A stretch of DNA of 54,247 bases from Planctomycetota bacterium (lineage in GTDB: Bacteria; Planctomycetota; Planctomycetia; JALXBF01): the NCBI GenBank assembly GCA_026991575.1, contig JALXBF010000109.1:1-54247 (forward strand), given 5' to 3'. The position numbers were made by a program, and so were the translations under genes. The notes beneath the pieces were generated by a model that was not told the DNA's origin, ran no database searches, and saw only the letters and a program-made list of their open reading frames with translations. This document shows, piece after piece, positions 12,453 to 49,939 of this stretch. Numbering within the stretch: position 1 is the first letter of the stretch; each line of letters opens with the position of its first letter.

Positions 12453-14396
12453 CTACAGCGACCGCAGGTACTCAACGAGGGCTTCCATGTCCTCGCCCTG
12501 AATGTGGGCATGTTCCTCGGCGTTGTGCATGTATACGGCGTCCGCCAGCGTCTTGGCCCGTCCGTCATGCAGCCAGGGACCGTCATCCCAGGTTCCCCTC
12601 AGATCCGGGACATCGTACTCGTCCGGCTGGATCCGATCGCCGTTCGGCAGAACGAGCACGTCGGGCCGACCCTTGCCCGTACCCGGCGCACGACGCACGA
12701 TCAGCACCTCGTCGTGCGGGAAGTGGCACTTGGTGCAGCCGGCAATGTAGTCGCCCTCGAAGATCGCACGGCCGCGTAACGCCTTCTCCGTTAGCTCGCC
12801 GTTTGGCTTGCGGAATGGGTTGGGGACCTTCGGAATCGATAGCACATAGGCTTCCAGCTTGGCGATTTCGTCCGGCAATGGCTTGCCACCACGCATGACC
12901 TGCTCGATCGTCGGGAGGCACTCGTCGTTGCCCACCGTTCGGGCTTCCCCTTGCCAGCGGAACGGGCTCGTACCTGCAATGCCACGCAGCGATTTGATGT
13001 CCTTGAACGTGCCCAGGCCATCATCGGCCAGGTCCCACGCCAGCCGGGCGTTGTGCCCTTCCGGGTGGCACGTCGCGCAGGCGAACTGATTACGGTAGCA
13101 GAACAGCGAGGAGTTAAACAGAATCTCGCCCTCACGCAATCTGCTCCTCTCCGACGGCCCAACAGCGAAGCGACGCACCAGCTCCGACTTGTCCCCCACA
13201 CGAACGGCAGCGACCGTCTCGTTCAGACGCTCGACGACGTAGAGCCAACCGTCTGCCCCCGCAAGGCCCTGCGGATTGGCCGCCACCGTCACGTACTGTA
13301 CCCTGTCCCTGGCAAGCGAGGTGCGGGGACCGGGGGCCGAACTTGCGGTCGGTAACGCATCAAACCGCCTCAACAGCCACGCTGCGTCGATAAGCAGCAC
13401 GCGGTCCGCCGCGCCACACGCCACCACCAACCACCGCCGACCGCCTCCGTCGCGGACCAACACCAGGTCGTACGGATTGGCGTAATAACGTTCAGTAGTG
13501 TCCAGCACGAAGGCACGCACTTGGGGCGATTCGCCCAATCGGATCAGGCCGATAGCGTGGTTCCATGGCGCAGGTTCACCGGCAGCCGGTACGTCGGGTC
13601 GCGGGATCGAGTACGCGAAGGCAATGGTGCGATCGTCCAGGTAAGCGATGCCGCGCAGGTTGGCAGCAGGCTTGACGGGGATCGTCTGCAGCACGTCCAA
13701 GCTGTCGGCCGCCAGCAGCACAACGTACCGCTGCAGACCTGCGGCGTCACAGGTAACGGCTAGCGTGTTGCCGTTGGCGCTGAGGGCCATGTGCCGCGGG
13801 TTATCGGGCAGTCGCCTGCGAGCCACGACGCGTTTGGTCACCGGGTCGATGGCGCAGATCGTTTCGTCCTTGCCCATACAGGTGACATAAACCCGACCGG
13901 TAACAGGGTGCGTGATCAGGTCGAACGGCTGGTTGTCCACGGCGACGTGACAGATCGGGGCCTGAGAGCGAAGATCGAGAACGGTTACCGTGTCCGAGTA
14001 GCGGTTGGCCACATAGAGCGTTTCTCCGTCGGGTGACAGCGCGATCCCGTTGGGGTAGTCCTGGGCCGGCAGTTCGGCCAAGACCGTGCCCTTGGCAGTG
14101 TCGAGCACGATGACCGCTCTGGCGTTACTTGCGGAGACGTACAGACGGCCGCGGTCTGGATCGACTGCCGCACGCAGCGGGGTCCGGTAACGCCGGTCCA
14201 GTTCCGTCGGGTCCGGGGCAACCGTACGGAATGTTTGCGGGACCGCCGAACGATCCTCAACGAGCACGAGTTCTGCTGGCCGAGGCGCAAGAAGCGAAGC
14301 CAGGTCCAGGTAGCCGCTGAGCTGTAGGCTGAGCGGAATGAGCAGCAGTACGAGCAGGATGGCGAGCAGAAGCAGACGTCGCTGCACGCGTATCAT
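12453..14396 (-). CDS. YVTN beta-propeller + diheme cytochrome c peroxidase-fold fusion; hydrazine synthase beta-gamma-like paralog 2
   Basis: N-terminal TM anchor; propeller repeats (PNGIALSPDGETLYVANRYSDTVTVLD); CATCH and CTKCH; WDLADDGLGTFKDIKSLRG..PFRWQG; YDVPDLRGTWDDGPWLHDG; clearly paralogous to 43081-44925. Confidence 0.8.
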   Translation of the reverse strand: MIRVQRRLLLLAILLVLLLIPLSLQLSGYLDLASLLAPRPAELVLVEDRSAVPQTFRTVAPDPTELDRRYRTPLRAAVDPDRGRLYVSASNARAVIVLDTAKGTVLAELPAQDYPNGIALSPDGETLYVANRYSDTVTVLDLRSQAPICHVAVDNQPFDLITHPVTGRVYVTCMGKDETICAIDPVTKRVVARRRLPDNPRHMALSANGNTLAVTCDAAGLQRYVVLLAADSLDVLQTIPVKPAANLRGIAYLDDRTIAFAYSIPRPDVPAAGEPAPWNHAIGLIRLGESPQVRAFVLDTTERYYANPYDLVLVRDGGGRRWLVVACGAADRVLLIDAAWLLRRFDALPTASSAPGPRTSLARDRVQYVTVAANPQGLAGADGWLYVVERLNETVAAVRVGDKSELVRRFAVGPSERSRLREGEILFNSSLFCYRNQFACATCHPEGHNARLAWDLADDGLGTFKDIKSLRGIAGTSPFRWQGEARTVGNDECLPTIEQVMRGGKPLPDEIAKLEAYVLSIPKVPNPFRKPNGELTEKALRGRAIFEGDYIAGCTKCHFPHDEVLIVRRAPGTGKGRPDVLVLPNGDRIQPDEYDVPDLRGTWDDGPWLHDGRAKTLADAVYMHNAEEHAHIQGEDMEALVEYLRSL

Positions 14397-36174: not shown

Positions 36175-36204
36175 TTGACAAAGTGGACACACTTTAGCTA
36201 GATT
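36175..36204 (+). promoter_or_regulatory. sigma70 promoter TTGACA-N18-TAGATT with palindromic operator AAAGTG-GACA-CACTTT (36180-36195)
   Basis: AT-rich island in GC-rich DNA ~110 nt upstream of the NapC-like start; perfect 6-4-6 inverted repeat overlapping the -35 and spacer. Confidence 0.65.
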
Positions 36205-36311
36205 TAAGATGCCTGCCGCGGTGGCGCATCCGAGGTGCCCCGCACGACGAGAGCGTCCCTCCCACGAGATCCCGCCCACCGAAGTGGCCCTTCGTTCCAG
36301 GAGGTAAGGCC

Positions 36312-36875
36312 ATGGCGGAGACAGGCCTGCAGCCTGTTGAGCAGCCGGAGCCCTGGCCCAGGAGACGACGCACCGTGCTGGCTCTGGCCCTAGCCGGCTG
36401 CGCGGTCATCCTGGCTGCGGCGGGATGGGTGGGCAGAAGGGTGACGGAGCGGCCCGAGTTCTGTGCCGCCTGTCACGAGATGAGACCGAGCTACGAGCAA
36501 TGGGTCTGCTCCTCCCACTACCAGCCCGAGCTGGGGGTCACGGCGACCTGCCAGGATTGCCACGTGGCCCCCGGCTTCACGGGCGCGTTGCAGAGCAAGC
36601 TCAGGGGACTGGTCCATGTCTACCGGCACCTGACCGAGCCATGGGATCCGATCCGATGGGAGGCCGACCGACTTCGGCGGCAACAGGTGGCCCGCGCGCA
36701 GATCGCTAACGAGGCATGCATCCGCTGTCATAAGCCGCCCGAAATAGCGCCTGCGCTGACCACCGTCGACCACACCAAGGTGGGCCCACGCAGCCGCTGC
36801 GTCGATTGCCACCGCAACCTGATGACGGGCCGTCGTCCGGCAATCCGTCGGCTGGCACACGCAATCGGAGAGTAG
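36312..36875 (+). CDS. NapC/NirT/NrfH-family membrane-anchored tetraheme cytochrome c (quinol dehydrogenase)
   Basis: N-terminal TM; FCAACHEM (CxxCHxM), SSH..CQDCH, CIRCH, CVDCH; GGAGG RBS. Confidence 0.9.
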   Translation: MAETGLQPVEQPEPWPRRRRTVLALALAGCAVILAAAGWVGRRVTERPEFCAACHEMRPSYEQWVCSSHYQPELGVTATCQDCHVAPGFTGALQSKLRGLVHVYRHLTEPWDPIRWEADRLRRQQVARAQIANEACIRCHKPPEIAPALTTVDHTKVGPRSRCVDCHRNLMTGRRPAIRRLAHAIGE

Positions 36876-36878
36876 ACC

Positions 36879-38210
36879 ATGCTGCCGAACCGCCTCCGTC
36901 GCCGCCGCTGGAAGGCTGCCCTGGCTGGCTTCATCTTGCTGGTTCTTGCGGGGACCGTAGCGGCCCGTCTATGGCGCGGGGACATGGCGGCATCGTCGGT
37001 ATCGCCGCCGGCGCCGGCCGCTGGGCAGGCCGTCGTGCTCAAAGACGCCTACGTGCCGAAAGGGTTCACGGTCCACGAGGCTCAGGCCATCTTTGATGCG
37101 CTCGCCAGGCAGATGCCGCTGGCGGCGGATGCATTCCGCAGAAGCGCCCACTACCGCGAGGGTATGACCTGTGTGACCTGCCATCAGGAGCTGCGCTGGG
37201 ACCAGGCCAGCGGCTCGGTGGATGTCACTTCGCTGGGACGCGTTCCGCCGGAGCGGTGCGGCGAATGCCATGAGCAGGAGTACGACGGTTTCCGAAAGAG
37301 TCGACACTTCAAGGCGGTGACCGTCTTCCGGGAGGTGGTTCGCTACAAGGCGCTGGCCGGCTACCCGGCCATGCAGCAGCAGGGCTGCAATCGTTGCCAC
37401 GAACCGATCGGTCAGAGTTGTTCAGCCTGCCATCCGGCCCACCTCTTCGAGCCGCCCAGACCGCCAAAGGACGAGTTCGGCGGGTGCCAGCGGTGTCACC
37501 TGGGACCCGACCACCACCAGCTCGAATCGTACGTAGCCAGCGTGCACTACCAGGTCGCGCGCGCCCGGGGGGACGGGATCCCTAACTGCGTGTTCTGCCA
37601 CACTGCCGACGACAACAAGCACCACATCTTCCGGATCAAGGGCACCAAGGACCATGGCAGGACAGCGCTGATGGCCAAGTGCACACAGTGTCACACGGAG
37701 CAGTTCGCTCGCCGAGCATTCGAAGGCATCGACGCCATCAAACATGAAACGAACAAGGTTGTCGATGCAGCGCGGCAAATCATTCGGGATCTGTATGCCG
37801 ACGGGATCCTCAACCGCGTCTCTGGCTCACTGACCGACGAGCAGGGCCTGCCCGCTCTGAACCCAAACCTGACCGCTTACGACCAGCATGTCCATCCAAT
37901 CGAGAACTTGATGTTCCGCATGTTCAAATACGATGCCGTGGCAACGATTGCCGGTGCTCAGCACTTCAGCGCAGTACGCACGCACTGGTACGGCCACGCT
38001 CAGCTCATGGAGACTTACAACCGCATCCGGCAAATGGCGCAGGAGCTGCGGTTCATGCATGCGCTGAGCAAGAAACTGGGCGTGCCGCTGCCGTCGATTC
38101 CCGTCTACCGCTACACGCACGAGACCGGCCGCGAGCTGGACGAACCATGGCACGATCCGGTGGGCTACCGCAAGAGATTGGCGGAGTTCTACAGCGAGGT
38201 CAATGAGTGA
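36879..38210 (+). CDS. Hydroxylamine oxidoreductase (HAO)-family multiheme cytochrome c with 7 CxxCH motifs
   Basis: TM anchor; CVTCH, CGECH, CNRCH, CSACH..H.F, CQRCHLGPDHHQLESY..SVH, CVFCH, M..CTQCH; helical C-terminus with GAQH..HWYG; spacing is typical of HAO/epsilon-Hao hemes 2-8. Confidence 0.85.
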   Translation: MLPNRLRRRRWKAALAGFILLVLAGTVAARLWRGDMAASSVSPPAPAAGQAVVLKDAYVPKGFTVHEAQAIFDALARQMPLAADAFRRSAHYREGMTCVTCHQELRWDQASGSVDVTSLGRVPPERCGECHEQEYDGFRKSRHFKAVTVFREVVRYKALAGYPAMQQQGCNRCHEPIGQSCSACHPAHLFEPPRPPKDEFGGCQRCHLGPDHHQLESYVASVHYQVARARGDGIPNCVFCHTADDNKHHIFRIKGTKDHGRTALMAKCTQCHTEQFARRAFEGIDAIKHETNKVVDAARQIIRDLYADGILNRVSGSLTDEQGLPALNPNLTAYDQHVHPIENLMFRMFKYDAVATIAGAQHFSAVRTHWYGHAQLMETYNRIRQMAQELRFMHALSKKLGVPLPSIPVYRYTHETGRELDEPWHDPVGYRKRLAEFYSEVNE

Positions 38211-38286
38211 ATGGGTTACCCGGCCGACGAAAGTCGTCGCGGGCCGCGGAGCCACTGTCCTGGAGCGAATCGGGAGGAGCTGAGCC

Positions 38287-39606
38287 ATGAGTGATGCTTT
38301 CGGTGCGCTTCATCGCCGCCGTTTTCTGAAGCTATCTAGCGGCATCGCCATTGGGAGCTGGACGGCCGCAGCGGCTACCGCCGCGTCGGCTCGACCAGCT
38401 GTATCGGCTGCTGAGACGGTAACGGTCGCGATTATCGGATGCGGTATTCGAGGTGGCCATCTGCTGCGCGCGTTTCAGCGGGTGCGGGGCTGCACCGTGG
38501 CCGCTGTGTGCGATGTCCATCGCGGCCGCCTGGCCAAAGCGCGCGACGCCGCAGGCAGCAGCGTGATGGCAACCACTGACTATCGCCGCATTCTCGATCG
38601 CAAGGACATCGATGCGGTCGTGGTGGCCACGCCTGATCAATGGCACGTCCTGATAACGATCCACGCATGTCAGGCCGGCAAGGATGTCTATGTCGAGAAG
38701 CCGCTGGGTGTGACGATCGCCGAAGGACGTGCCGCCGTGCGCGCGGCCCGAAAGTACAACCGGGTCGTCCAAATCGGCACGCAGCAACGCAGCTGGCCGC
38801 ACTATGCCGAAGCGGTCGAGATCTTAAGGTCAGGCGAGCTGGGCACCATCAGCGAAGTGAAGGTGTGGGACTATGAGAACCAATACCCAGGCTTTGGGAA
38901 CCCGCCCGACGAGCCGGCACCTGCGGAACTGGACTGGGACTTCTGGCTGGGACCGTCCCCTCTGGTGCCGTACAACCGCAACCGGTATCTCCACCACTAC
39001 TGGTTCTTCGACTACGGCGGTGCCTGGCAAGTCGACTGGGCCGTCCATCACTATGACATCGTCCACTGGGCCATGGGCGTGCGGTGGCCCCGGACGGCGA
39101 CAGCCAGTGGCGGCAAACTGTGCTTTGAAGACAACCGAGAATGGCCCGACACGTTCGAAGGGATTCTCGAGTACGGACCATGTGACCTGGCACCGAAGGG
39201 GTTCGTGCTGCAGTACACGTTCCGAGGGGGCTGTCGGCGGGAGCGGCACAACCACGCCAAACTGTTCTGCGGCACCCACGGTTCAATGCTGCTGGACCGC
39301 AGCGGGTACTACATCCTGGCCGAAACGCACCGCGGACAGCGGGTGATCAAGAGCAGGGAGGTGCGGGCCAAAGAGCCGCCACGTCACCAGGAAGCGTTTC
39401 TGGAGAATGTGCGTGAGCGGAAGCGGCCGTTTGCCGACATCGAGGAAGGCCATTACGCCACGAATCCCGGGCACCTGCTGAACATCGCCTGGCGACTGGC
39501 CAGGAAGATCGTCTGGGACGGCGAAAAGGAGCAGGTCCTCGGCGATGAGGAGGCCAACGCACTGCTTGGGCGGAAGTTTCGCGCTCCGTGGGAGCTGACG
39601 ATCTGA
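38287..39606 (+). CDS. Tat-exported Gfo/Idh/MocA oxidoreductase
   Basis: HRRRFLK twin-arginine leader; IIGCGIRG; ATPDQWH; KDVYVEKP; QIGTQQRS; LDWDFWLGP; DWAVHHYD. Confidence 0.93.
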   Translation: MSDAFGALHRRRFLKLSSGIAIGSWTAAAATAASARPAVSAAETVTVAIIGCGIRGGHLLRAFQRVRGCTVAAVCDVHRGRLAKARDAAGSSVMATTDYRRILDRKDIDAVVVATPDQWHVLITIHACQAGKDVYVEKPLGVTIAEGRAAVRAARKYNRVVQIGTQQRSWPHYAEAVEILRSGELGTISEVKVWDYENQYPGFGNPPDEPAPAELDWDFWLGPSPLVPYNRNRYLHHYWFFDYGGAWQVDWAVHHYDIVHWAMGVRWPRTATASGGKLCFEDNREWPDTFEGILEYGPCDLAPKGFVLQYTFRGGCRRERHNHAKLFCGTHGSMLLDRSGYYILAETHRGQRVIKSREVRAKEPPRHQEAFLENVRERKRPFADIEEGHYATNPGHLLNIAWRLARKIVWDGEKEQVLGDEEANALLGRKFRAPWELTI

Positions 39607-40117
39607 TGCTCGGAGCTGGGAGCTGGGAAGTTGGATGGACAGGCTGCCCGAGGGGGTGAACTCGTCGGCTCTTGGAGCGTGGCTGTCAAAGGTCGTGGTT
39701 CCTTTTGTTGGTGACCCGACGGCCGGGCGCAGGACTCGGAGCCGCGGCAGTCAGTCCTACGGCCACGGGGGCTGCCTGCGACGCTGCGCGCAGGGGGACG
39801 CCGCCACGGGCGCGGCACTGGCTTCTGTTCGCCGACGGAAGTGCTGGCCCGAAGTGCCAGAGCGACCCCGATACTGCCTGCGCCGACCAGGCGAATACCC
39901 CCCACCACGGCTGCCGGGGAAGGGACGATGCCGCTCGGTGCCGCTGGTTAATGGGCCGTTGGGAGCGCGGAACCGGTGTCTTCAAGAATGCCACGGTGAG
40001 AGTGGGACAGGTGAGGGTATCCGGTTCGATCGACCCCCGGCGCAGCTCACGCGGCATGGCGGCTGTGAAAGCCGCTCGAATGGCTGGCCTGAGGAGCTGT
40101 TCTGGTTGAGCGAAGCC

Positions 40118-40144
40118 GGCGAGGGGGATTGGTCCCCCTTCGCC
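40118..40144 (-). terminator. GC-rich hairpin 70 nt downstream of the HZS-alpha-like gene (possible terminator, no U tract)
   Basis: GGCGAAGGGGGA-CCAA-TCCCCCTCGCC on the minus strand. Confidence 0.35.
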
Positions 40145-40213
40145 AGCTCGTTGCGGAGATCTGGTGGGCCGGTACGGCGCTGCGACGGCAGCCCGATCCG
40201 CGGCCTTGCCGTC

Positions 40214-43027
40214 TCACCGGCTCAGGGCATAGGCCGGGCTGGTCAGTTCCGGGCCGGTGGTTATCCGGACGCGGATGCGCCAGGCACCGGAGAAGTTGTG
40301 CACCTTGAACAGCAGCTGGTTCTCTCCCTTGCGCAACCTTACCGGGATCACGTCCCAGTCATACCAGAAGGGCTGACGTACCAGCCGTTGGATCATGGGC
40401 TGACCGTTCACGAACAGCTCGAACATATCGTCGGCCGTAACACGCACCCAGACCGTCTGGTCTCGGTCAGAAGGCACGATGGCCAGCGCGTACGCAGTGG
40501 CGGGACCGGACGGTCTGAGCACCCGGCCCAGATTCAGGACGCCGGTCGGCTCATCCACGTGAACTTCTTGCCACCCGATCTGGCCGCTCGCTGCCGAGAA
40601 CTTTGCCCCCGGATCGAACCGCTGCTGCTCGGGACCGAAGCGGGTGCGGATGCCGGCTGCGCCACGGTTGTCGAACGGGCCGCAGACGTACCAATCCCTC
40701 ACTTCGCCGGCATTGTCGGTGAGAGTGTGGACGTAGCGGGCAATCAGCTCCACCTCTTCGTCTTTGATCCAGTTCCTGGCCTTTTGCTGCATGTTCCGCA
40801 CGGTCTCGAGCCATTTCGCCATGCTGCGCCTGAGCCCCAGGAACTTCCGAAGGCCATGACACCGCGTGCAGCGCACTTCGGTGGCCTGCTTGCCGTCGGT
40901 GAAGGTGATCTTTGCGTAGTCGGGCTGCCTAGCGCGCCACTGCTGAGCGAGCGCCGCGCTCTGCTTGCGGTTGTAGCCCGGGTACGGGTCTGGACCGGGG
41001 ATGTTGTCCCATTGAGCTCCGAGGTCGATCCACAGAGCGAACAGACGTTTCTCTTCGTCGGTGAGCGGCTCGTCAGGCGGACATTGATTGACTTCGGTGT
41101 TGTACTCGAACGAGTACCCGTACAGCCGCCAGATGAGTGGGCTCTTGCGCGCAAAGCCCGGGTAGATGTACTTGCCGGTGCGGTAGTCGGCCGGGGCACA
41201 CAAGCTTAAGTACGACTTGCTGAAGAACGCCCCGTTGATCTCGTAGGCGCGGTCGGGCATGGTGACGCGCGGGATGAACACGAGCTTGTCACCACCGGAA
41301 AGATCCAGCCCCCCTTCGGCTTTCTTCTCGTTATGGCATCGCACGCACTTGCGTTCGATAATCGGGATCAGGTCGCGGCGGAAGTCGACCGTTTTTCGGT
41401 CTTCGGGCTTGGTTACAAGATCGACTGGTCCGGCGGTGGCGGCCAGCGGCACGCGGTCCAGGAGCGGCGGCCGACTTCGCCGCTCGTGGCAGCCGACACA
41501 GGTGCGATGCTCTCCGGGCCGGACCCAGATCCAGGTGAGCGCATCCTGCAGTGCCATGCCGTTCTCGTCAAGCACCTGAAGATGCAGCACCGTATCGGCT
41601 GGTACCTTGACGTAGAACGAACCGTCGCTGGCCACGGGCGCCTCGCCCACAACCCGCTTCTGTTCGAAGTTGCTGATGGAGTTGGTCGATGAGCCGAAGG
41701 AGGAGAAGCCGATGCCGGGCAGCAGCGTGCGGAAGGTGTCGTTGTCGTCCTCGACACCGAAGCCCTCGATGATCCGGACCCGCTTGATCTGCCCCGGCTT
41801 GATGAACGCTTCCTTGTCCGTCTGACCGATGTAGGCGTTCAGGCACAGCAGCGTTCCCCAGTTCTGATGGCGGGCGATGTTGTGGTCGGGGATGATTGGT
41901 GGTTTGGGCCGAGCTTCCACATAGATCGGGTTCAGTGCCTGGTAGTTCGGGTCGTTGTACACGGGCGCCCCTCGCTTGCGGGCCTCAATATCGAACCAGT
42001 AGATGCCAAACTGCGCCTTGGGCCCCTCAGGGTTGCGGTAGCCGCTCCAGCAGGGCGGCGGTGACCAGCAGACCAGCAGGCGGCCGTCACGGGTCGGGTA
42101 CGGATCGCGATAGCGGCCCCCGGGAGTGTTCGGCCCGTACAGGCGGACGTCAGGAGTCAGATTGACCATGGCCTTGCGATCGTCCGGGTCGCCCGGGGTC
42201 AGTAGCGCGAGCGCGCCGCCGCCGTAGGCATGGTGGAAGACGCTTTCGATGTACACGATCCGCCCGTCGGGCAGCTCGCGCTGTTTCCACCGGAAGCCGC
42301 CGCGATGGTTGCCATAGAAGTCGATGAACTCGGTGCCGTCCGGGTTCATCGTGAACAGAGCGGATGCACCAGAGGTGTGGAACCGCATGCCATGATGTTG
42401 CCAGCTCTGAAACAGCACCCGCCCGTCGCTGAGTACGATGAACTCCGAGTCGGAGCTGAGGTTGAAGGAGATCTGTTCCACGTTGCTACCGTCCGGATCA
42501 CAGCGGTGGACTAGCCGGGCATAGTCGCGGTCATATTCATCCCGCCGCTTGTGCGGATCCATGGCCACATGGCGTGTGGAGCTGAAGATGATCCGGCCGT
42601 CAGGCAGGTAGTACGGCGAGCAGGCGTCGGCCATGCCGCGCGTGATCTGTCGTTTGTTCTTGCCGTCCAGGTCCATCTCCCAGATTTCCCAGCCATCCTG
42701 TGGCGTGCGTCGCCCGGAGAAGATGATCTTGGTGCCGTCGTAGCTGAGCTCCGGTTCGTCGGCACCGTAGAACTCCGGTGTCAACACCGTCAGCTTCCCG
42801 TCCGGGCGGGGGGGCGAGAGCTTCACGATCTCCATTCCGGGCACATGCGCAGACTGCCCGAAGTGGTACATGAACGGCTCGTAGTGGATGCCGGGCCGTC
42901 CGTTCGGACGATTCTTGATCCGCACGAAGATGATCGCCCCTTCGTCCCGGTTCACCTCTTCGGCGTAACTGGCAGGGACGGCCACGATGGCCGCGACGAA
43001 AGGCAGAACTGCTAACCACCACTTCAT
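40214..43027 (-). CDS. Hydrazine synthase alpha-subunit-like protein with three CxxCH motifs and an added C-terminal beta-sandwich domain
   Basis: Signal peptide; TolB-like propeller (PYYLPDGRIIFSSTR, RDEY..DGSNVEQISFN, SWQHHG, LFTMNPDGT, GRYRDPYP); HZS-alpha middle domain GEAPVASDGSFYVKVPADTVLHLQVLDENGMA..WIWVRPGE..CVGCHE; VDFRRDLIPII..KCVRCH; extra CTRCH. Confidence 0.85.
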   Translation of the reverse strand: MKWWLAVLPFVAAIVAVPASYAEEVNRDEGAIIFVRIKNRPNGRPGIHYEPFMYHFGQSAHVPGMEIVKLSPPRPDGKLTVLTPEFYGADEPELSYDGTKIIFSGRRTPQDGWEIWEMDLDGKNKRQITRGMADACSPYYLPDGRIIFSSTRHVAMDPHKRRDEYDRDYARLVHRCDPDGSNVEQISFNLSSDSEFIVLSDGRVLFQSWQHHGMRFHTSGASALFTMNPDGTEFIDFYGNHRGGFRWKQRELPDGRIVYIESVFHHAYGGGALALLTPGDPDDRKAMVNLTPDVRLYGPNTPGGRYRDPYPTRDGRLLVCWSPPPCWSGYRNPEGPKAQFGIYWFDIEARKRGAPVYNDPNYQALNPIYVEARPKPPIIPDHNIARHQNWGTLLCLNAYIGQTDKEAFIKPGQIKRVRIIEGFGVEDDNDTFRTLLPGIGFSSFGSSTNSISNFEQKRVVGEAPVASDGSFYVKVPADTVLHLQVLDENGMALQDALTWIWVRPGEHRTCVGCHERRSRPPLLDRVPLAATAGPVDLVTKPEDRKTVDFRRDLIPIIERKCVRCHNEKKAEGGLDLSGGDKLVFIPRVTMPDRAYEINGAFFSKSYLSLCAPADYRTGKYIYPGFARKSPLIWRLYGYSFEYNTEVNQCPPDEPLTDEEKRLFALWIDLGAQWDNIPGPDPYPGYNRKQSAALAQQWRARQPDYAKITFTDGKQATEVRCTRCHGLRKFLGLRRSMAKWLETVRNMQQKARNWIKDEEVELIARYVHTLTDNAGEVRDWYVCGPFDNRGAAGIRTRFGPEQQRFDPGAKFSAASGQIGWQEVHVDEPTGVLNLGRVLRPSGPATAYALAIVPSDRDQTVWVRVTADDMFELFVNGQPMIQRLVRQPFWYDWDVIPVRLRKGENQLLFKVHNFSGAWRIRVRITTGPELTSPAYALSR

Positions 43028-43080
43028 GGCTGTCGTCTCCTTGTAACGGTGCTGGCCACGAGCGCGGGCAGGCGGCGGAC

Positions 43081-44925
43081 TCAGAGGGAAAGCAGGTAGG
43101 CAATCAGGTCCGAGAGCTCTTGCTCGGTCAGCTGCGACGTCTTGCCGTGCTTGTCCTCAGGGTTGTACTTGGTGAAGACCTCACGAAGCGTTCGCGCACG
43201 GCCGTCGTGCAGGTAGGGGGGGCTGTCCCAGATGCCCACCAGCTGCGGGACGTCGAACTGAGTGGGGTAGATCGTGTTGCCGGAAGGCAACTTCAGCGGA
43301 GCGTACCGCCCCTTACCGGTGCCCACGTCGCGCCGCTTGCGGTTCGTGAACTTCGGCCCGCTATGGCACTTGATGCAGCGAGCCTTCCCTTCGAAGATCT
43401 GCTTGCCGCGGCGAGCCGCCTCGCTCAGCGAGCCGTCCGGCATGCGATACGGATTCGGTACCAGCGGCACGGAGCGGACATAGCTTTCCAGCGCCTCCAG
43501 ATCGGCCGGCGACAGGGGGCTCCCGCGCATGGCGAGCGTCACCGTCGGCCCGCACTCATTCGCGCCGATTTCGGCTGCCTCGCCTTGCCAGCGGAACGGA
43601 CCGGTACCGTCCACACCGCGGAAGCTCCGGATGTTCTTGACGTTGCCCAGCCCGTCGTCTTCCAGGTCCCAGCTCAGACCGGTCGTGTGTCCTTCCGGAT
43701 GGCAGCTCGCACAGGAAAACTGACGCTGGAAGCAGAGCGTCGCCGAGTTGTACAGGATCTCGCCACGCCGACGCATCGTGATCCTGGCAGTTTCGCCCAC
43801 CGGGATGCTCGTGCCCACGGTCAGGTGCCCGAGGTCGATGACGGAGAGCGTGTCGGCGAGCCGGTTGGCCACCACCGCCACATCGGCTCGCGGCACCAGC
43901 GCGATGCCATACGGATTGCGCCCCACCGGGATCACCGCCAGCCGATACGGCCGGCTCGCTCCAAGCGGCACATAGCCGCGTTGCCCCTTCAGCCTGCTTG
44001 CTTCCGCCAACAGCCGAGGCAGGTCATACACCAACACCTCATCAACGCCGGCGCAGACCACAAACAACCGACGGCCCTCCGGACCGACGGCTAGCCCGTA
44101 CGGGTTGGCGAAGTAGCGGTGTGCCTCGTCCAGGATCACAGTCTGAACCTGGTCCTTGGAGGCCGTGTACCGGATGAAGCTGATCGCGTTGTTGTTCACC
44201 CAGCCCTGGCGAACCTGCGTCAACGGCACAAACGGCTTGGGAATCAAGTGGGCCACGGCAAGAACGCCGGGGGCTACCTCGATCAGATCCCGTAGGTTGC
44301 TGGCTGGCCGAAGCTCGAAGCGGCCGACGATCTTGCCGCTGGCCAGCTCGATCTGCACCACGGGCCTGCTCAGGTCGTAGGCGTCGCAAGCGACAAACAG
44401 GTACCGACCATCCCGGCTGACGGCCAGGTGTCGCGGATTCTGGGCCACGCTGATGCGACGCAGCAGCGTGCGCTGTGCCACGTCGATTTCCACGACCACT
44501 TCGTCCTTGCCCATGCAGCTAACCCAGAGCCGATCACGCCCGGTCCACTCCACGTCGTACGGTTGGTTCGGCACCGGCACGGTTGCGGCGACCTGGAGGT
44601 CGGGCAGCGTAAACAGGTAGAGCTCGTCGCTGTAGCGACACGCGACCGCGGCCAGCTTGCCGTCGGCTCGTACAGCAACGCCCGTCGGCTCGCGCCCCAC
44701 AGGCGTCTCCCGCACGACCTGGCCGCCGTCCAGGTCAACCAGGCTGACGGAGTTGCCCTGGTGGTTGGTGACGACTACCAGCGCTGTGCCCGGAACGGCA
44801 GCGACCTGAAGCGGCGATCGATAGTGGGGCTGATCGGCCGGCGAGGCGGTAGTGCTGGGCGCCAGGAGCAGGAGCACCGGTAGCAGGAAGAGCAATTGCG
44901 TACGAGGCTGCTGCTTGGCGTGCAT
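43081..44925 (-). CDS. Hydrazine synthase beta-gamma-like fusion (YVTN propeller + diheme CcP/MauG-like domain)
   Basis: Signal peptide; YRSP start; PKPFVP..QGWVNNNAI, LDE...FANPYGL; FQRQFSCASCHPEGHTTGLSWDLEDDGLG..KNIR..RG..PFRWQG; CIKCH; DVGTG; FDVPQL..PYLHDG; DKHGKTSQL; GGAGG RBS. Confidence 0.85.
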   Translation of the reverse strand: MHAKQQPRTQLLFLLPVLLLLAPSTTASPADQPHYRSPLQVAAVPGTALVVVTNHQGNSVSLVDLDGGQVVRETPVGREPTGVAVRADGKLAAVACRYSDELYLFTLPDLQVAATVPVPNQPYDVEWTGRDRLWVSCMGKDEVVVEIDVAQRTLLRRISVAQNPRHLAVSRDGRYLFVACDAYDLSRPVVQIELASGKIVGRFELRPASNLRDLIEVAPGVLAVAHLIPKPFVPLTQVRQGWVNNNAISFIRYTASKDQVQTVILDEAHRYFANPYGLAVGPEGRRLFVVCAGVDEVLVYDLPRLLAEASRLKGQRGYVPLGASRPYRLAVIPVGRNPYGIALVPRADVAVVANRLADTLSVIDLGHLTVGTSIPVGETARITMRRRGEILYNSATLCFQRQFSCASCHPEGHTTGLSWDLEDDGLGNVKNIRSFRGVDGTGPFRWQGEAAEIGANECGPTVTLAMRGSPLSPADLEALESYVRSVPLVPNPYRMPDGSLSEAARRGKQIFEGKARCIKCHSGPKFTNRKRRDVGTGKGRYAPLKLPSGNTIYPTQFDVPQLVGIWDSPPYLHDGRARTLREVFTKYNPEDKHGKTSQLTEQELSDLIAYLLSL

Positions 44926-45002
44926 GGCGTGCCTCCAAGCTTCTTGGATTCGCTGGCGGGCCCGGCGGCGGATCGGCGGGTGCGGCAGGAGGAAAGTTAT
45001 TG

Positions 45003-45050
45003 AATGTCGATCCACATTACATAGATTAGCCGCCGCACGCACCCTGTCAA
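45003..45050 (-). promoter_or_regulatory. sigma70 promoter TTGACA-N16-TAATCT of the HZS-like operon with palindrome AATGTGGATCGACATT at the inferred TSS
   Basis: -35 at 45045-45050, -10 at 45023-45028; 7/8 inverted repeat at 45003-45018; AT-rich island. Confidence 0.65.
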
Positions 45051-45448: not shown

Positions 45449-48400
45449 ATGAGCAGCAGTGTTCAGAAGAGGCCCGTCACCGCCTTCCTGGTTGCACTCC
45501 TGTCCTGCCTGGCCGTCGTTCGGGCGGCTGCTTGGGGCCAAGCGGGAACCGGCGTACAGGAGCGGGCGCCTGATCCCGCCGCGCTTCGGCAGCTGAAGGC
45601 CGCGGCGCGTTTCTTTCAAGAAGGCAAGTACGACTTTGCCGCGGACACGTACCGCGAGTTTCTGAATCGCTACGGGCAGATGCCTGAGGCTGAGGAGGCC
45701 CGCTTCTTCCTGGCCGAATCCCTCATGCTCCTGAAGCGCTATGACGAAGCGCACCGCGCCTACCAGGACTATCTCCAGCGTCATCCCGATGGTCGCTACC
45801 TGCCCTGGGCCCGATTCCGACTCGGCGAGTCGGCGTTTCTTGCCGGACGGTGGCAAGAGGCAATCGAGCAGCTCCGTGCGTACGTCTCGCAGCACGGTGG
45901 CCATCGGATGGTGCCATACGCGGAGCGGTACATCGGTGAGGCGTTGTTGAAGCTGGGCCGCAATGAAGAGGCGGAACGCCAACTTCGGGCCACGATCCGC
46001 CGGTACCCGAAATTGCCGGTGACGGACCACGCTCGCTATGCCCTGGCTCAGCTGTTGGAGGCCCAGCAGCAGCGGGACGAAGCGTTGCAGTTCTACTTGG
46101 TGGTTGGCCAGGGGAACTCATCCGTTGCGGATGACGCGCTGCTGGCTGCCGGCACCATCGAATACGCTGCCGGGCGGTACGCGCATGCGCAGAAGCTGTT
46201 CGAGACGCTGTTGCAGCGGTTTCCACAGAGCAAACTTCGGTGGACGGCTCACTTCAACGCCGGACTCAGCCTGTTTCGTCAAAAACGCTACGCTGCAGCC
46301 GAAGGCCACTTCATGCTGGTTGCCGGCGCACGGAAGGGTGATGAGCTCGGGTTGGAAGCCGCCTACTGGCTGGGCCGCTGTCTGGCCGAGCAGGGCAACG
46401 GCGACGAGGCAGCGCGCCGGTTGGCCGAGCTGGCCGACCAGGCAGTCAAGGCGGGCAAGGTCGATCTGGCGGCGCGCGCACTGTACGAAAGTGCTCGAAC
46501 GCTTGCGCAGAGTGGCGATGTCACAGCGGCCGTGACCCGATACCTGGCGGTTGCAAGCCGCTTCCCCGAGCACGAACTGGCCGAACAAGCAGCCGCGCAG
46601 GCCGTGTTCACCGCGGCACGCAGCGAAGCGAACGCCAGGGCGATCGAGCTGGCCGACAGCTACTTGCAGACGTTCCCCGAAGGCAAACGCCGTGCTCAGG
46701 TGGCGCTGGCCGCTGTGCGCGCCGCGCTGGCGGAGCGCAAGCCGGACGTGGCCGAACGATGGGTCAGGATCGCTTTGCAGGACGGCGACCAGACCGTGAT
46801 CCGCGCCGGTCGGTACTACCGCGCGCTGATCGAGGCTGATCGGGGGGCTTATGCCCAGGCCGTGCAGACGCTCGACCCGTTGCTCACCGATGCCGAAACG
46901 GCGCGGGTCTTGCCGGAAGCCTACTTCCTTGCGGGCCGGTGTGCCTATCAGTTAGGCCGGTATGCAGACGCGCTGAAAGCGCTTGCAGTGTTCTTGCAAA
47001 CGCAGCCCGACGAGGAGTTGGCGGCGCATGCGCGCGCGTACCGCGTGGTCTCCTTAGCGCATCTGGGGCAGTTTGACGGCGTTCTCGAGGAGCTGCAGCA
47101 GTTGGCCGATACGGCGGACGTGCGCATCCCAGCTGCGCTTGCAGCCGCGGACGCCTTCTATGACCGGGAAGCTTATGAGCCAGCTGCGACGTTGTACGGC
47201 ATCGTCGTTGCCGCGGAAGGCGTCGACGAGCAGGACCGGGCCTACGCGCTGGCCGGCCGCGCCTGGGCACGCTTCTACGCGGGCCGGATCGACGAGGCGT
47301 TGAGCGATGCCGACGAGTTCCTCAAGCGATACGCGGACCACAAGTTGGCGGCCGAAATGCTTCTCTTGACCGGCTTCGCCCACAAGCAGGCTGGAGCGAT
47401 CGACAAGGCGCTGGCAGCGTTCGATCGTCTCGTGAGACGCTACGCCGACAGCGATCTGGTGGTCGATGCGCTGCTTGCGCGCGCCCGGCTGCTGGTGCAA
47501 GCGGACCGGTCCGCGGAGGCACTGGCCGCGTATGCCGACGCGCTCGCCATCCTCCGCAGCGGTCAGCAGAGCAGCCGCGCGGGGCGGAGCAAGGAGGACT
47601 CTGATCGCGACCTGGCCGGGGTGCTCGGCGAGTATGCCTGGGCGCTGTGGAAGGCGGGCAAAGTGGACGAGGCGATAGCGCACTATCGTGAGTTAATCCA
47701 GCGCTTCCCCGACGCGCCCGGCACGGCCAAGGCCGAGCTGAACCTGGCCCAGCTGCTGCTGGACCGCAACGACCCGGTGGCACGCCAGGAGGCGGTAGCT
47801 CTAGCTACAAAGCATCTGTCGGCCGGTGATTCGGAGTTGCGGGCCGAGGCATCGTTCCTGCTGGCCCGCGCCGCTTTTGCGGAGGCGGACTGGTCGCAGG
47901 TGGAGAAACACTGCCGCAACTATCTGGAAATCGCCGCCGACGGTCCTCGCGCGGCTCAGGTCTACTACATGCTGGTCGAGGCCCTCTACGAGCAGCAGAA
48001 GGGCAACGAGTTGGGCGACACGCTACAACGGGCCCTGGCCGTGACGAACCAGGACGCGCCATGGCGGGGCCGGTTGCTGCTGCGACGGGCTCAGTGGCTC
48101 ATCGGCCAGCGAAGATGGCAGGAGGCGATCGAGGCGCTGCGGCCGCTGCTGGGCGATCCGTCGAATTCTCTGCGACCGGTTGCCGAATACTACAGAGGTA
48201 GGGCGCTGTACGAGCAGGGCAAGCTCAACGAGGCGCTCGCTGCGTTCAAGGAGGCGCTGGCGGCGGAGGATGCTGAGTTAGCGGCGCGGGCGCAGTTCAT
48301 GATCGGCGAGACGCTGTTTGCGCAGCGGCAATTCCGTGCCGCGATCCGCGAATTCCTAAAGGTAGACCTGGTCTATGACGTTTCACGCTGGCGAGCCGCG

Positions 48401-48571
48401 GCTCTGGTGGAAGCGGGCAAGTGCTACGAGCAGCTCAGGGAATGGCGTGCCGCGCGGGAGGTGTACGAGAGGGTGCTGAAGGAGTTTCCTGACGAGCCGG
48501 TGCGGCAGGAGGCCGAACGCCGGCTGAAAGCGATCCAGACCATGTCTGCGATGCGAAAGGGCACCGGTTAG
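45449..48571 (+). CDS. Large secreted TPR protein (BamD/YbgF-like repeats)
   Basis: Signal peptide; repeated A..Y..FL..YP...A.A.F.LGE helices; ARAQFMIGETLF..FLKV C-terminus. Confidence 0.88.
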   Translation: MSSSVQKRPVTAFLVALLSCLAVVRAAAWGQAGTGVQERAPDPAALRQLKAAARFFQEGKYDFAADTYREFLNRYGQMPEAEEARFFLAESLMLLKRYDEAHRAYQDYLQRHPDGRYLPWARFRLGESAFLAGRWQEAIEQLRAYVSQHGGHRMVPYAERYIGEALLKLGRNEEAERQLRATIRRYPKLPVTDHARYALAQLLEAQQQRDEALQFYLVVGQGNSSVADDALLAAGTIEYAAGRYAHAQKLFETLLQRFPQSKLRWTAHFNAGLSLFRQKRYAAAEGHFMLVAGARKGDELGLEAAYWLGRCLAEQGNGDEAARRLAELADQAVKAGKVDLAARALYESARTLAQSGDVTAAVTRYLAVASRFPEHELAEQAAAQAVFTAARSEANARAIELADSYLQTFPEGKRRAQVALAAVRAALAERKPDVAERWVRIALQDGDQTVIRAGRYYRALIEADRGAYAQAVQTLDPLLTDAETARVLPEAYFLAGRCAYQLGRYADALKALAVFLQTQPDEELAAHARAYRVVSLAHLGQFDGVLEELQQLADTADVRIPAALAAADAFYDREAYEPAATLYGIVVAAEGVDEQDRAYALAGRAWARFYAGRIDEALSDADEFLKRYADHKLAAEMLLLTGFAHKQAGAIDKALAAFDRLVRRYADSDLVVDALLARARLLVQADRSAEALAAYADALAILRSGQQSSRAGRSKEDSDRDLAGVLGEYAWALWKAGKVDEAIAHYRELIQRFPDAPGTAKAELNLAQLLLDRNDPVARQEAVALATKHLSAGDSELRAEASFLLARAAFAEADWSQVEKHCRNYLEIAADGPRAAQVYYMLVEALYEQQKGNELGDTLQRALAVTNQDAPWRGRLLLRRAQWLIGQRRWQEAIEALRPLLGDPSNSLRPVAEYYRGRALYEQGKLNEALAAFKEALAAEDAELAARAQFMIGETLFAQRQFRAAIREFLKVDLVYDVSRWRAAALVEAGKCYEQLREWRAAREVYERVLKEFPDEPVRQEAERRLKAIQTMSAMRKGTG

Positions 48572-48604
48572 GGGCCCCGAGGTGTGTGGAGAGGTCACGA
48601 GCCG

Positions 48605-49453
48605 ATGAAGCGAACGTTCTGGCCGCTGTCACTTGTTGCTGGAGCTGTTATCTTTGGCTTGTTCGTGTCGCCCGTGTTCGCCCAGCAGTTCACGGCGGCG
48701 AAGGTGTTGGAGGGGCTGATCCCCGACGAGGCGAACCCGATCGTGGCGATCCTGCGCCGCGGTGGGGTCCTGATGTATCCGATCCTCGGCTGTTCGATCC
48801 TCCTCGTTGCGGTCGCGCTGGAGCGGCTGATTGCCCTGCGGCGCGCGCGTGTGATTCCACAGCCGTTCGTGGACCGCTTCCTGGCCGATCTGCGTGAAGG
48901 CCTCTTGGACCGGGACGCGGCGCTGTTGCGGTGCCGCAGCGACGGCAGCCCTGTCGCACGTGTTCTGGAGCACGCGGTCCGCCGCTGGGGGCGACCGGCC
49001 GTGGAGATCCAGCAGTCGGTCGCCGAAGGGGGGCAGCGCGAAGTGCTCGAACTGCGCCGGAATCTACGTGTGATCAACGGCATCTCGACCGTGGCACCGC
49101 TGCTCGGCCTCCTTGGCACAGTGATCGGCATGATTCGCTGCTTTGCCGAAGTGGCCGCTCAGACCGACGCCATGGGTAAGCCCGAGGCGCTGGCCCAGGG
49201 CATCTACGTGGCGCTGTACACGACCGCGTTCGGTCTGAGCGTCGCGATCCCAGCACTGATCGTGTACTACTACTTCCTCGGGCGGGTGGATCGGCTGGTG
49301 GCCGAGATCGACGCGCTGGCTCAAGAGGTGATCGAGCTGGTTGCCGGCGACGGGGCGGTTGCGCCGGTACGGGGGATCGTGCCGGCCGACGGTGATCATC
49401 GGCCTCAGGTGCGTACCGCCAAGACGGTCCACTCCGCACGACAGAGCGCGTGA
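48605..49453 (+). CDS. exbB: MotA/TolQ/ExbB proton channel protein
   Basis: GGVLMYPI, APLLGLLGTVIGMI, GIYVALYTTAFGLSVAIP. Confidence 0.93.
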   Translation: MKRTFWPLSLVAGAVIFGLFVSPVFAQQFTAAKVLEGLIPDEANPIVAILRRGGVLMYPILGCSILLVAVALERLIALRRARVIPQPFVDRFLADLREGLLDRDAALLRCRSDGSPVARVLEHAVRRWGRPAVEIQQSVAEGGQREVLELRRNLRVINGISTVAPLLGLLGTVIGMIRCFAEVAAQTDAMGKPEALAQGIYVALYTTAFGLSVAIPALIVYYYFLGRVDRLVAEIDALAQEVIELVAGDGAVAPVRGIVPADGDHRPQVRTAKTVHSARQSA

Positions 49454-49482
49454 CGCGAACTTCCAGCGGGAGCAGCCGGGCG

Positions 49483-49935
49483 ATGTTGTCGGGAACCCAG
49501 CAAGACGACCTGCCCACGCTGAACATGACCCCCCTGATCGACATGGTCTTCCTGTTGATCATCTTCTTCCTCGTGGGTACACGATTCGAACAGTACGAGA
49601 ACGAACGCAGGCTGGACCTGCAGGTGCCCGAGGTCGCAGCGGCCCGTCCCATGGTGTCCGCACCGTCGCAGTTGGTGATCGAAGTGACACGCGACGGGAC
49701 GATCCGCTGGGCAGGTTCGCCTGTGTCGCTTCCAGAGCTGGCGAAGCGCCTGGCCGAAGCGTTGCAGGACGATCCAGACCGTGCTGTGCTCATCCGGGGC
49801 GACGGCCGCGCAACGCTACAGCCGGTGGCTGACGTGCTCAGCATCTGCCAGCAGCAGGGCGTGCGCCACCTTGGTGTGAGCGTGCGCGAGCGGCGGCAAC
49901 GGCCCGAGCGGTTACAGGAGCAGCGGTCGGAGTAA
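49483..49935 (+). CDS. exbD: ExbD/TolR protein
   Basis: LNMTPLIDMVFLLIIFFLV (conserved Asp); VLIRGD. Confidence 0.93.
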   Translation: MLSGTQQDDLPTLNMTPLIDMVFLLIIFFLVGTRFEQYENERRLDLQVPEVAAARPMVSAPSQLVIEVTRDGTIRWAGSPVSLPELAKRLAEALQDDPDRAVLIRGDGRATLQPVADVLSICQQQGVRHLGVSVRERRQRPERLQEQRSE

Positions 49936-49939
49936 CGCG

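Follow-up and report, generated by a model that had tools for sequence, protein, structure and literature searches.

We describe a pair of genes related to hydrazine synthase (HZS) of anammox bacteria, encoded on a 54,247-nucleotide stretch of DNA (contig JALXBF010000109.1 of assembly GCA_026991575.1; hereafter the window) from an uncultured planctomycete genome (G000; 4.96 Mb, 97.8% complete), to which anammox genomes are kin at phylum level only. The pair consists of a fused HZS-beta-gamma-like gene (43081..44925, minus strand; 614 aa, two CxxCH motifs) and an HZS-alpha-like gene (40214..43027, minus strand; 937 aa, three CxxCH). It converges on a plus-strand operon for a NapC/NrfH-family membrane tetraheme quinol dehydrogenase (36312..36875; 187 aa, four CxxCH), a seven-heme protein of the reductive type of the hydroxylamine oxidoreductase (HAO) family, here called Hao7 (36879..38210; 443 aa, seven CxxCH, N-terminal hydrophobic anchor), and a Tat-type Gfo/Idh/MocA oxidoreductase (38287..39606; 439 aa, no CxxCH). 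All five open reading frames (ORFs) are present and intact, with 4+7+0+3+2 = 16 CxxCH motifs, just as the original prediction had listed them, and family and structure searches agree with its assignments. That prediction saw in the locus an anammox-like parts list, a view that our results do not bear out. The pair almost certainly makes no hydrazine. We tentatively propose that it is instead an enzyme acting on nitric oxide (NO) or hydroxylamine whose reductase partner is swappable.

The pair keeps the HZS fold and lacks HZS catalytic residues

The alpha-like protein matches HZS alpha, 5c2v_A, with an E-value of 7e-64 (Foldseek E 4.5e-38, TM-scores 0.54/0.65), and the single beta-gamma ORF matches HZS gamma and beta, 5c2v_C/B, with E-values of 1e-38 and 7e-34. 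The likeness to Kuenenia HZS (PDB 5C2V) extends through all three subunits, in fold as in domain order, and includes four homologous hemes. Genes of the pair stand in the anammox order, beta-gamma then alpha, in the window and in loci L003 and L005-L009, and beta and gamma are fused as in Scalindua. Beta-gamma comprises a propeller and a diheme CCP/MauG-type domain. Alpha comprises a propeller, a middle domain with heme I, a heme II domain with Cys649 in a CPP motif and two features specific to the clade, an extra third heme domain with a conserved Met and a C-terminal beta-sandwich. ESM Atlas matches to the alpha C-terminus all score below 0.9, and cytochrome c plus a PA14-like domain is a lead only.

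At about 27-38% identity to anammox HZS, both proteins fall short of the NCBIfam HZS cut-offs, with 288 of 800 bits for alpha and 217 of 1250 bits for beta-gamma. Residue roles were taken from PMC12758564. Tyr591, an HZS heme ligand, is absent from the clade alphas; of 18 proteins, ten have His and eight Gln in place of Cys303, which forms the HZS Zn site with His587; and His772, which makes heme II of HZS alpha bis-His, is absent, with CPP in 18/18, compared with MPP in 16/19 and 7/11 proteins of neighboring groups. The position of this motif suggests His/Cys ligation of alpha heme II. In gamma, His144, Arg167 and Asp168 are replaced by Trp, Pro and Thr in all 31 clade proteins, and the beta loop Glu is not kept either. 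Retained are Cys165, the third covalent Cys of HZS gamma heme I (31/31), Arg143, the distal His332 and an insertion after the gamma heme II motif that is missing in the published homolog clade I. We do not count the pair among hydrazine synthases because its scores lie under the cut-offs and the alpha and gamma catalytic residues are replaced.

The gamma domain also admits an oxidative reading, in which the pair is a CCP/MauG-type enzyme, NapC-Hao7 is an ordinary accessory nitrite reductase, and the two lie side by side only because one family once acquired them together. H2O2 or O2 would react at gamma heme I, and holes would hop via Trp to modify an organic or protein substrate. A Trp between the hemes, a CCP-like Gly-Pro after that Trp and weak matches of the pair to MauG/MbnH models fit this scheme, whereas the position of the CCP catalytic Glu is not kept in a by-eye comparison. 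Taken with the neighborhood evidence below, we regard such unrelated neighbors as somewhat unlikely.

Position of the pair among HZS homologs

A profile from nine anammox alphas was searched against 1.84 billion representatives, and matches longer than 560 aa were ranked, shorter rows being omitted. The top non-anammox matches were P0033 (332 bits), P0018, from the window's clade (310 bits), and P0257 (303 bits). On a finer set the window alpha scored 290 bits, 25th of 175 non-anammox rows, with a 630-aa group reaching up to 349 bits and the other alpha of the host genome scoring 70. (A phylum-wide alpha hidden Markov model search, which scored two candidates per genome and missed the host's own gene, was used only to fetch anammox sequences.) The 41-row alpha tree places anammox as sister to the window's clade plus a clade of 1100-aa proteins, with support of only 72/67; in 1000 bootstraps the sister was both clades in 474, the 1100-aa clade alone in 252 and a group holding clade I in 244. 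The gamma tree, of 47 rows, shows a trichotomy of anammox, the window's clade, and clade I with its allies. The pair thus ranks with the closest relatives that HZS has outside anammox and falls somewhere around the base of anammox HZS, though these data do not single it out as the closest. On that placement, the pair could be a sister lineage of anammox HZS that still carries out an ancestral NO-to-hydroxylamine half-reaction, with an exchangeable reductase finishing to ammonium; we consider this improbable.

The alpha group containing clade I (support 98/94) leaves out the window's clade, and forcing that clade together with clade-I-type alphas was rejected by the approximately unbiased test (p-AU 2e-93). 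The published gene order and a count of 9-10 hemes were the criteria for picking clade-I rows, without an FG-GAP scan of the middle gene. For clades II-IV, the trees hold no named sequences; distant alphas of the same class fall far away, and the II/III architecture (PMC12758564) was not matched by inspection. The pair belongs to an undescribed clade known from metagenome-assembled genomes (MAGs) only, which the approximately unbiased test separates from clade I. The trees of Hagglund 2025 were built on RefSeq (PMC12758564), and the portion of its supplement text that was searched had no match to Fuerstiella, Pirellulaceae or Planctomycetaceae. Literature searches, whose coverage left out most subscription papers, turned up no paper on the clade or on the CysI-like partner described below.

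The pair resembles homolog clades I-IV (PMC12758564) and the hzs-like genes of PMC10732223 in being non-anammox, with alpha and fused beta-gamma co-located, catalytic residues lost and Trp for His144; the third Cys is common to the pair and clade I. It differs in layout. The homologs of Suarez 2023 (PMC10732223) and Hagglund 2025 (PMC12758564) have alpha first: clade I reads alpha, an FG-GAP gene and a multiheme beta-gamma of up to 10 hemes, clades II/III place alpha first and lack alpha heme II, and clade IV is variable in order. The pair, in contrast, has beta-gamma before alpha with no gene between, two hemes in beta-gamma and three in alpha. The available parts of PMC12758564 and PMC10732223 describe no reductase partner.

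Other relatives were also seen. The host genome holds a distant alpha-then-beta-gamma pair at C65:84206-88683 and lone beta-gamma-like genes at C162:24321-26129 and C6:61082-62896. In the window, a second, membrane-anchored beta-gamma-like paralog, bc2 (12453..14396, minus strand), nests within the pair's clade (100/98) and appears derived from it. Proteins P0090, P0092 and P0094, of about 1300 aa, have Pfam lists that join alpha-like and beta-gamma-like domains in one chain.

NapC and the seven-heme Hao

The window NapC is over the cut-off for PF03264 (NapC/NirT), has NrfH 2j7a as its nearest structure, and possesses the N-terminal membrane helix and all four hemes of its family. It keeps the family Lys96 and has His where most partners have Glu, the quinol-site acid; the NapC of G001, the second genome of the host's family, is without the Lys. 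Hao7 is over the cut-off for PF13447, and its nearest structures are the HAO-family entries 6h5l/6t5e/4n4j. Its seven motifs correspond to HAO hemes 2-8, the family norm being eight, and therefore heme 1 is missing. Catalytic heme 4 (Cys170-His174) and the distal Asp211-His212 are invariant among members. The AlphaFold model shows long helices but is of low confidence (mean pLDDT 59.7), too low for Trp370 and Tyr371 to be positioned.

Polarity was read from the cross-link position. In a 49-row alignment with anammox HAOs, Trp370 of Hao7 aligns without gaps to the cross-link Tyr of hydroxylamine oxidase (HOX) and hydrazine dehydrogenase (HDH) and to the Trp of HAOr; HOX and HAOr rows were labelled by match to PDB fragments, and HDH rows by their heme-motif pattern. 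The adjacent Tyr371 is His or Phe in other Hao7 members. A small doubt remains, as pairwise profile alignments to HOX put Tyr371 on the cross-link Tyr, but only by opening a gap. HAOs without the cross-link act in the reductive direction, on nitrite, NO and hydroxylamine, and carry out no oxidation (PMC8042395); we therefore read Hao7 as a reductase. Hao7 proteins form a separate clade (100/100) outside HOX/HDH/HAOr in a 30-row tree with long branches flagged, which places them apart from the anammox HAO lineage.

A metagenome scan returned 67 Hao7 loci, of which the 24 with E <= 1e-29 were examined and 43 weak ones dropped. napC lies directly upstream of Hao7 in 16 of the 18 loci whose upstream DNA extends for 600 bp or more, several of them near-duplicates, and napG/napA/napH lie behind Hao7 in three, NapA there scoring 841 bits, just below cut-off. 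One member is attributed by its source to Syntrophomonas erecta, and short Hao-type clusters are frequent in the ESM Atlas across several phyla. From this gene order, NapC-Hao7 is a module of its own that occurs across phyla. It is probably a quinol-fed reductive nitrogen-oxide module, with family and polarity taken from the sequence and activity predicted from them. We found no paper on a seven-heme Hao in the same literature searches. Other genes recur beside the module: a 990-aa gene without NCBIfam match downstream of Hao7 in several loci of 59-60% GC (L040, L044, L050), and, near napC-hao7 in low-GC loci (L039, L037, L049, L051), a response regulator together with a histidine kinase that carries one CxxCH.

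Known systems offer two parallels. Like epsilon-Hao of the reverse hydroxylamine-ubiquinone redox module of Nautilia profundicola (PMC3701875) and Kuenenia HAOr (PMC8042395), Hao7 is an HAO-family protein without the Tyr cross-link that is accompanied by a NapC-type tetraheme and sometimes Nap. It differs from them in having seven hemes and about 400-440 aa, and in its separate clade, in a tree that held anammox HAOs and no epsilon-Hao sequences. As in NrfHA, an NrfH-type quinol dehydrogenase gene directly precedes a multiheme nitrogen-oxide reductase, but the catalytic subunit here is of the HAO family, with CxxCH hemes only and no CxxCK.

Linkage of the pair to NapC-Hao7

The original prediction joined NapC, Hao and the HZS-like pair in one nitrogen-oxide module and suggested a synteny survey. 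Alpha orthologs of 58-71% identity occur in nine genomes, one of them G001; the named carriers are Planctomycetota MAGs, seven of the nine labelled Planctomycetia. A strict first look at 401 genomes of the class detected Hao7 in two, the host and G001, and members of the pair's clade in these two as well and in no others. In G001, the genes bc2, napC, hao and gfo stand in this order on one strand, bc2 being the ortholog of the window gene at 12453-14396, and the outer flanking genes map to other host contigs. napC-hao-gfo thus touches a gene of the pair's clade in both genomes, and the window layout is one inversion away from bc2-napC-hao-gfo. The simplest history would be a family ancestor in which bc2-napC-hao-gfo faced the pair. 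Adjacency of the pair itself in G001 is not visible because both relevant contigs end in repeats; an attempt to join the two found no overlap, both ends being repetitive and C418 lying outside the contig-overlap BLAST.

Beyond the family the link disappears. The flanks of the pair hold no napC or hao in the eight other genomes, and Hao7 was not found in any of the eight (weak partial profile matches only, completeness unknown). Conversely, 23 of the 24 metagenome loci of Hao7 show no neighboring HZS-like gene, although just five loci extend for about 4 kb or more in both directions. The NapC-Hao/clade link is confined to this family of two genomes, where it survives reshuffled flanks. What stands of the predicted module is a quinol-fed NapC-Hao7 with a link kept in one other genome of the family; its generality does not. 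Because the module is real only within one family and its Hao is not of the anammox lineage, the locus is not a miniature anammox system. The missing Hao7 in the eight carriers, like the convergent operons with separate promoters, would be expected of unrelated neighbors. Against that explanation, a reductase type competent for nitrite or hydroxylamine adjoins clade genes in 9/10 genomes, in mutually exclusive forms.

A CysI-like siroheme paralog in other carriers

In seven of the eight pair-carrying genomes outside the family, a CysI/Sir-type siroheme gene adjoins the beta-gamma gene (L005:6110-7879, L006, L007, L008, L009, L227 and L228). It lies directly upstream in four, is divergent in one, has its gene end at the contig edge in one and is on the beta-gamma contig in one; the eighth genome has no CysI-like match and a different beta-gamma type. 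Siroheme enzymes also reduce nitrite and hydroxylamine. The CysI-like partner is an extra paralog tied to the pair, in which Arg153 is lost in 6/6 readable copies (Cys in five, Gly in one), with a Cys-Cys motif just after; second CysI copies in these genomes keep Arg153 in all six that were read. The E. coli Arg153 is the second anion-binding, sulfite-binding Arg (PMC11947256). This paralog is absent from the host and G001 genomes, and the two reductase neighborhoods, NapC-Hao7 and CysI-like, are mutually exclusive among carriers.

The same partner allows a reading in terms of sulfur, in which the pair acts on sulfur compounds, the CysI-like enzyme reduces a sulfite-level product and Hao7 is a bystander. 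SoxA and TsdA carry Cys-ligated hemes, which a His/Cys alpha heme II resembles. CPP in 18/18 clade alphas, where neighboring groups mostly have MPP, is consistent with this, as are the sulfite-reductase score of the partner and a weak SorB match on the third heme domain of alpha (E 0.006). However, the partner has lost a sulfite-binding Arg (PMC11947256) while a normal copy is kept elsewhere in the genome, it is wholly absent from the host's family, the fetched flanks contain no sox or tsd genes, and Cys ligation is read from motif position, not from a heme-bound model. We judge a sulfur role to be quite unlikely.

Some carriers have further genes at the cluster. L007:1051-13382 holds another beta-gamma-like gene, a HemN-like radical SAM gene, a flavin halogenase/QhpG-like gene, the CysI-like gene, the pair and an Rrf2 regulator, and L228, too, has such a flavin gene close to its CysI-like gene. 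The flavin gene in two carriers and the radical SAM gene in one would suit the oxidative reading with unrelated neighbors.

Nitrogen metabolism in the host genome

The host genome has NapA over cut-off, two NirA/Sir genes and one aa3-type oxidase gene. NapA is encoded at C114:25898-31963 (L164), in one run with a tetraheme, a cytochrome b and an eight-heme reductive-type Hao that is 56% identical to one anammox Hao; this run is a candidate second Nrf-independent nitrate-to-ammonium operon. At C1:5689-12913 (L165) lie genes for a Tat-exported type II DMSO-reductase alpha (1155 aa), a beta and a diheme gamma-like subunit, which are Nar/Nxr-like and under cut-offs. At C102:1491-5200 (L167), an Rrf2 gene is divergent from genes for an 812-aa heme-copper protein and RIC, an NO-stress unit in which the heme-copper protein would be qNor.

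NirK, NrfA, full-length NirS and NosZ were not found in this 97.8% complete genome, which, alongside its NapA, favors the function proposed below. The original prediction also proposed looking for anammox genes in the rest of the genome. No PF03063 family match (HCP/CODH) was obtained, and HDH was not found, the best match having 26% identity; the Nar/Nxr-like trio is what is present. The locus is not an anammox locus, because the alpha and gamma HZS residues are replaced and no HDH was found, and the host does not appear to be an anammox organism. With Hao outside the HOX/HDH/HAOr clade as well, the anammox-like parts list finds no support. Anammox gene order, a Scalindua-like fused beta-gamma, the fold match to 5c2v and nitrate and NO metabolism in the genome could still be cited for the view that the pair is a genuine hydrazine synthase, only divergent, and the host an anammox-type organism not recognised as such. 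Yet the pair scores far below both family cut-offs, alpha Tyr591, Cys303 and His772 and gamma His144, Arg167 and Asp168 are all replaced, HDH and CODH/HCP matches are lacking as above, anammox genomes are only same-phylum kin and an aa3-type oxidase gene is present, and we give this explanation almost no credence.

A proposed function for the pair

We propose that the locus comprises two separately transcribed, periplasm-facing modules with nitrogen-oxide metabolism in common. NapC would draw electrons from quinol and hand them to the membrane-anchored Hao7, which would reduce nitrite, and probably NO and hydroxylamine, towards ammonium, in the manner of NrfHA or epsilon-Hao and downstream of the host's nitrate reductases. 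The beta-gamma/alpha pair would form an HZS-shaped complex without hydrazine production, most likely keeping an NO- or hydroxylamine-level reaction at gamma heme I, the triple-Cys heme common to HZS. That heme would be wired to gamma heme II, a His/Cys alpha heme II and a third, His/Met heme; lacking the Tyr591/Zn site, the complex would not link nitrogen to ammonia through an N-N bond. Hydroxylamine or nitrite entering or leaving the complex would be handled by the partner reductase, and the pair may use the Hao product, as originally predicted. The partner is read as swappable because the neighborhoods seen are NapC-Hao7 in this family and the Arg153-less CysI-like siroheme enzyme in 7/8 others; its chemistry and its coupling to the pair are conjectural.

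Several observations weigh against this proposal. The Hao7 link amounts to one lineage and one event, Hao7 being found in none of the eight carriers outside the family, and what borders napC in G001 is bc2, a paralog, with the pair on other contigs. The second, Nap-linked eight-heme Hao of the host could cover nitrite reduction, and four more beta-gamma-like genes in the host have no such reductase partners in view. Trp/Pro/Thr at gamma His144/Arg167/Asp168 is the peroxidase/MauG state, which argues against HZS-type NO reduction (PMC12758564). The CysI-like neighbor scores as a sulfite reductase (PRK13504 over cut-off in 4/5) and not as NirA. FsrII of anaerobic methanotrophic archaea (ANME), a nitrite reductase, shows the same Arg loss, yet its specificity for nitrite was explained by its authors through the electron-supply module rather than the binding pocket (PMC9295563), so that the loss of Arg153 is only a weak hint of nitrite use. 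Finally, similar 16-bp palindromes at the two operon promoters (36180-36195 and 45003-45018), noticed post hoc, were rejected as a shared operator: the genome has six matches with <=1 mismatch against about nine expected by chance, and G001 has none.

Gene calls and other features of the locus

A sigma-70-like promoter of napC-hao-gfo is predicted at 36175..36204 (plus strand) from a consensus match only, and the perfect 16-bp palindrome overlaps it. A putative promoter of the beta-gamma/alpha operon lies at 45003..45050 (minus strand), with TTGACA at 45050-45045 and then the 16-bp near-palindrome; it was identified by eye and was not listed by the consensus scan. Comparison of the clade's promoters found no motif common to all. 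The beta-gamma start is most likely ATG 44925 (614 aa) and not GTG 45225, because the database protein has 614 aa and the TTGACA hexamer falls inside the longer ORF. A 524-aa plus-strand ORF at 39635-41209 was rejected as a shadow frame, with no Pfam match and overlapping alpha antisense. GC content and GC at third codon positions (GC3) of the locus genes are in line with those of the surrounding window.

The Gfo/Idh/MocA protein, assigned by family match and bearing an RRRFLK Tat-type motif, belongs to a large paralog family in the host genome (30 tblastn hit rows); the G001 copy is syntenic and 77% identical. It was rejected as a catalytic part of the NapC-Hao7 module, as it adjoins Hao7 in no metagenome locus except that of G001. 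Further along the window, a run of genes at 45449-52420 specifies a 1040-aa TPR protein, ExbB, ExbD and a protein with prenyltransferase/squalene-cyclase repeats; tatA comes next, on the opposite strand.

Implications for the origin of HZS

How HZS originated is unsettled: reports of distant homologs date from 2023 and 2025, and none of these proteins has a known function. The pair's clade is as near to HZS as any group sampled and keeps the anammox gene order, and its neighbors point to nitrite/hydroxylamine (or sulfite) reduction, which narrows down the proteins and substrates worth assaying. The value of the locus is as a test case for pre-HZS function. It also cautions that hzs-like and hao-like genes in a metagenome bin do not prove anammox, and it brings forward the seven-heme Hao with NapC as a candidate Nrf-independent ammonification module in several phyla. 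Were the pair indeed a sister lineage retaining the ancestral half-reaction, a complex that served NO detoxification or ammonification would have gained hydrazine synthesis by a few changes at its alpha heme I and gamma pocket, and the locus would preserve, in a living organism, a pre-anammox pathway that includes a His/Cys heme not seen in HZS. The different reductase neighbor of its relatives is a clue to the role of this enzyme family before anammox.

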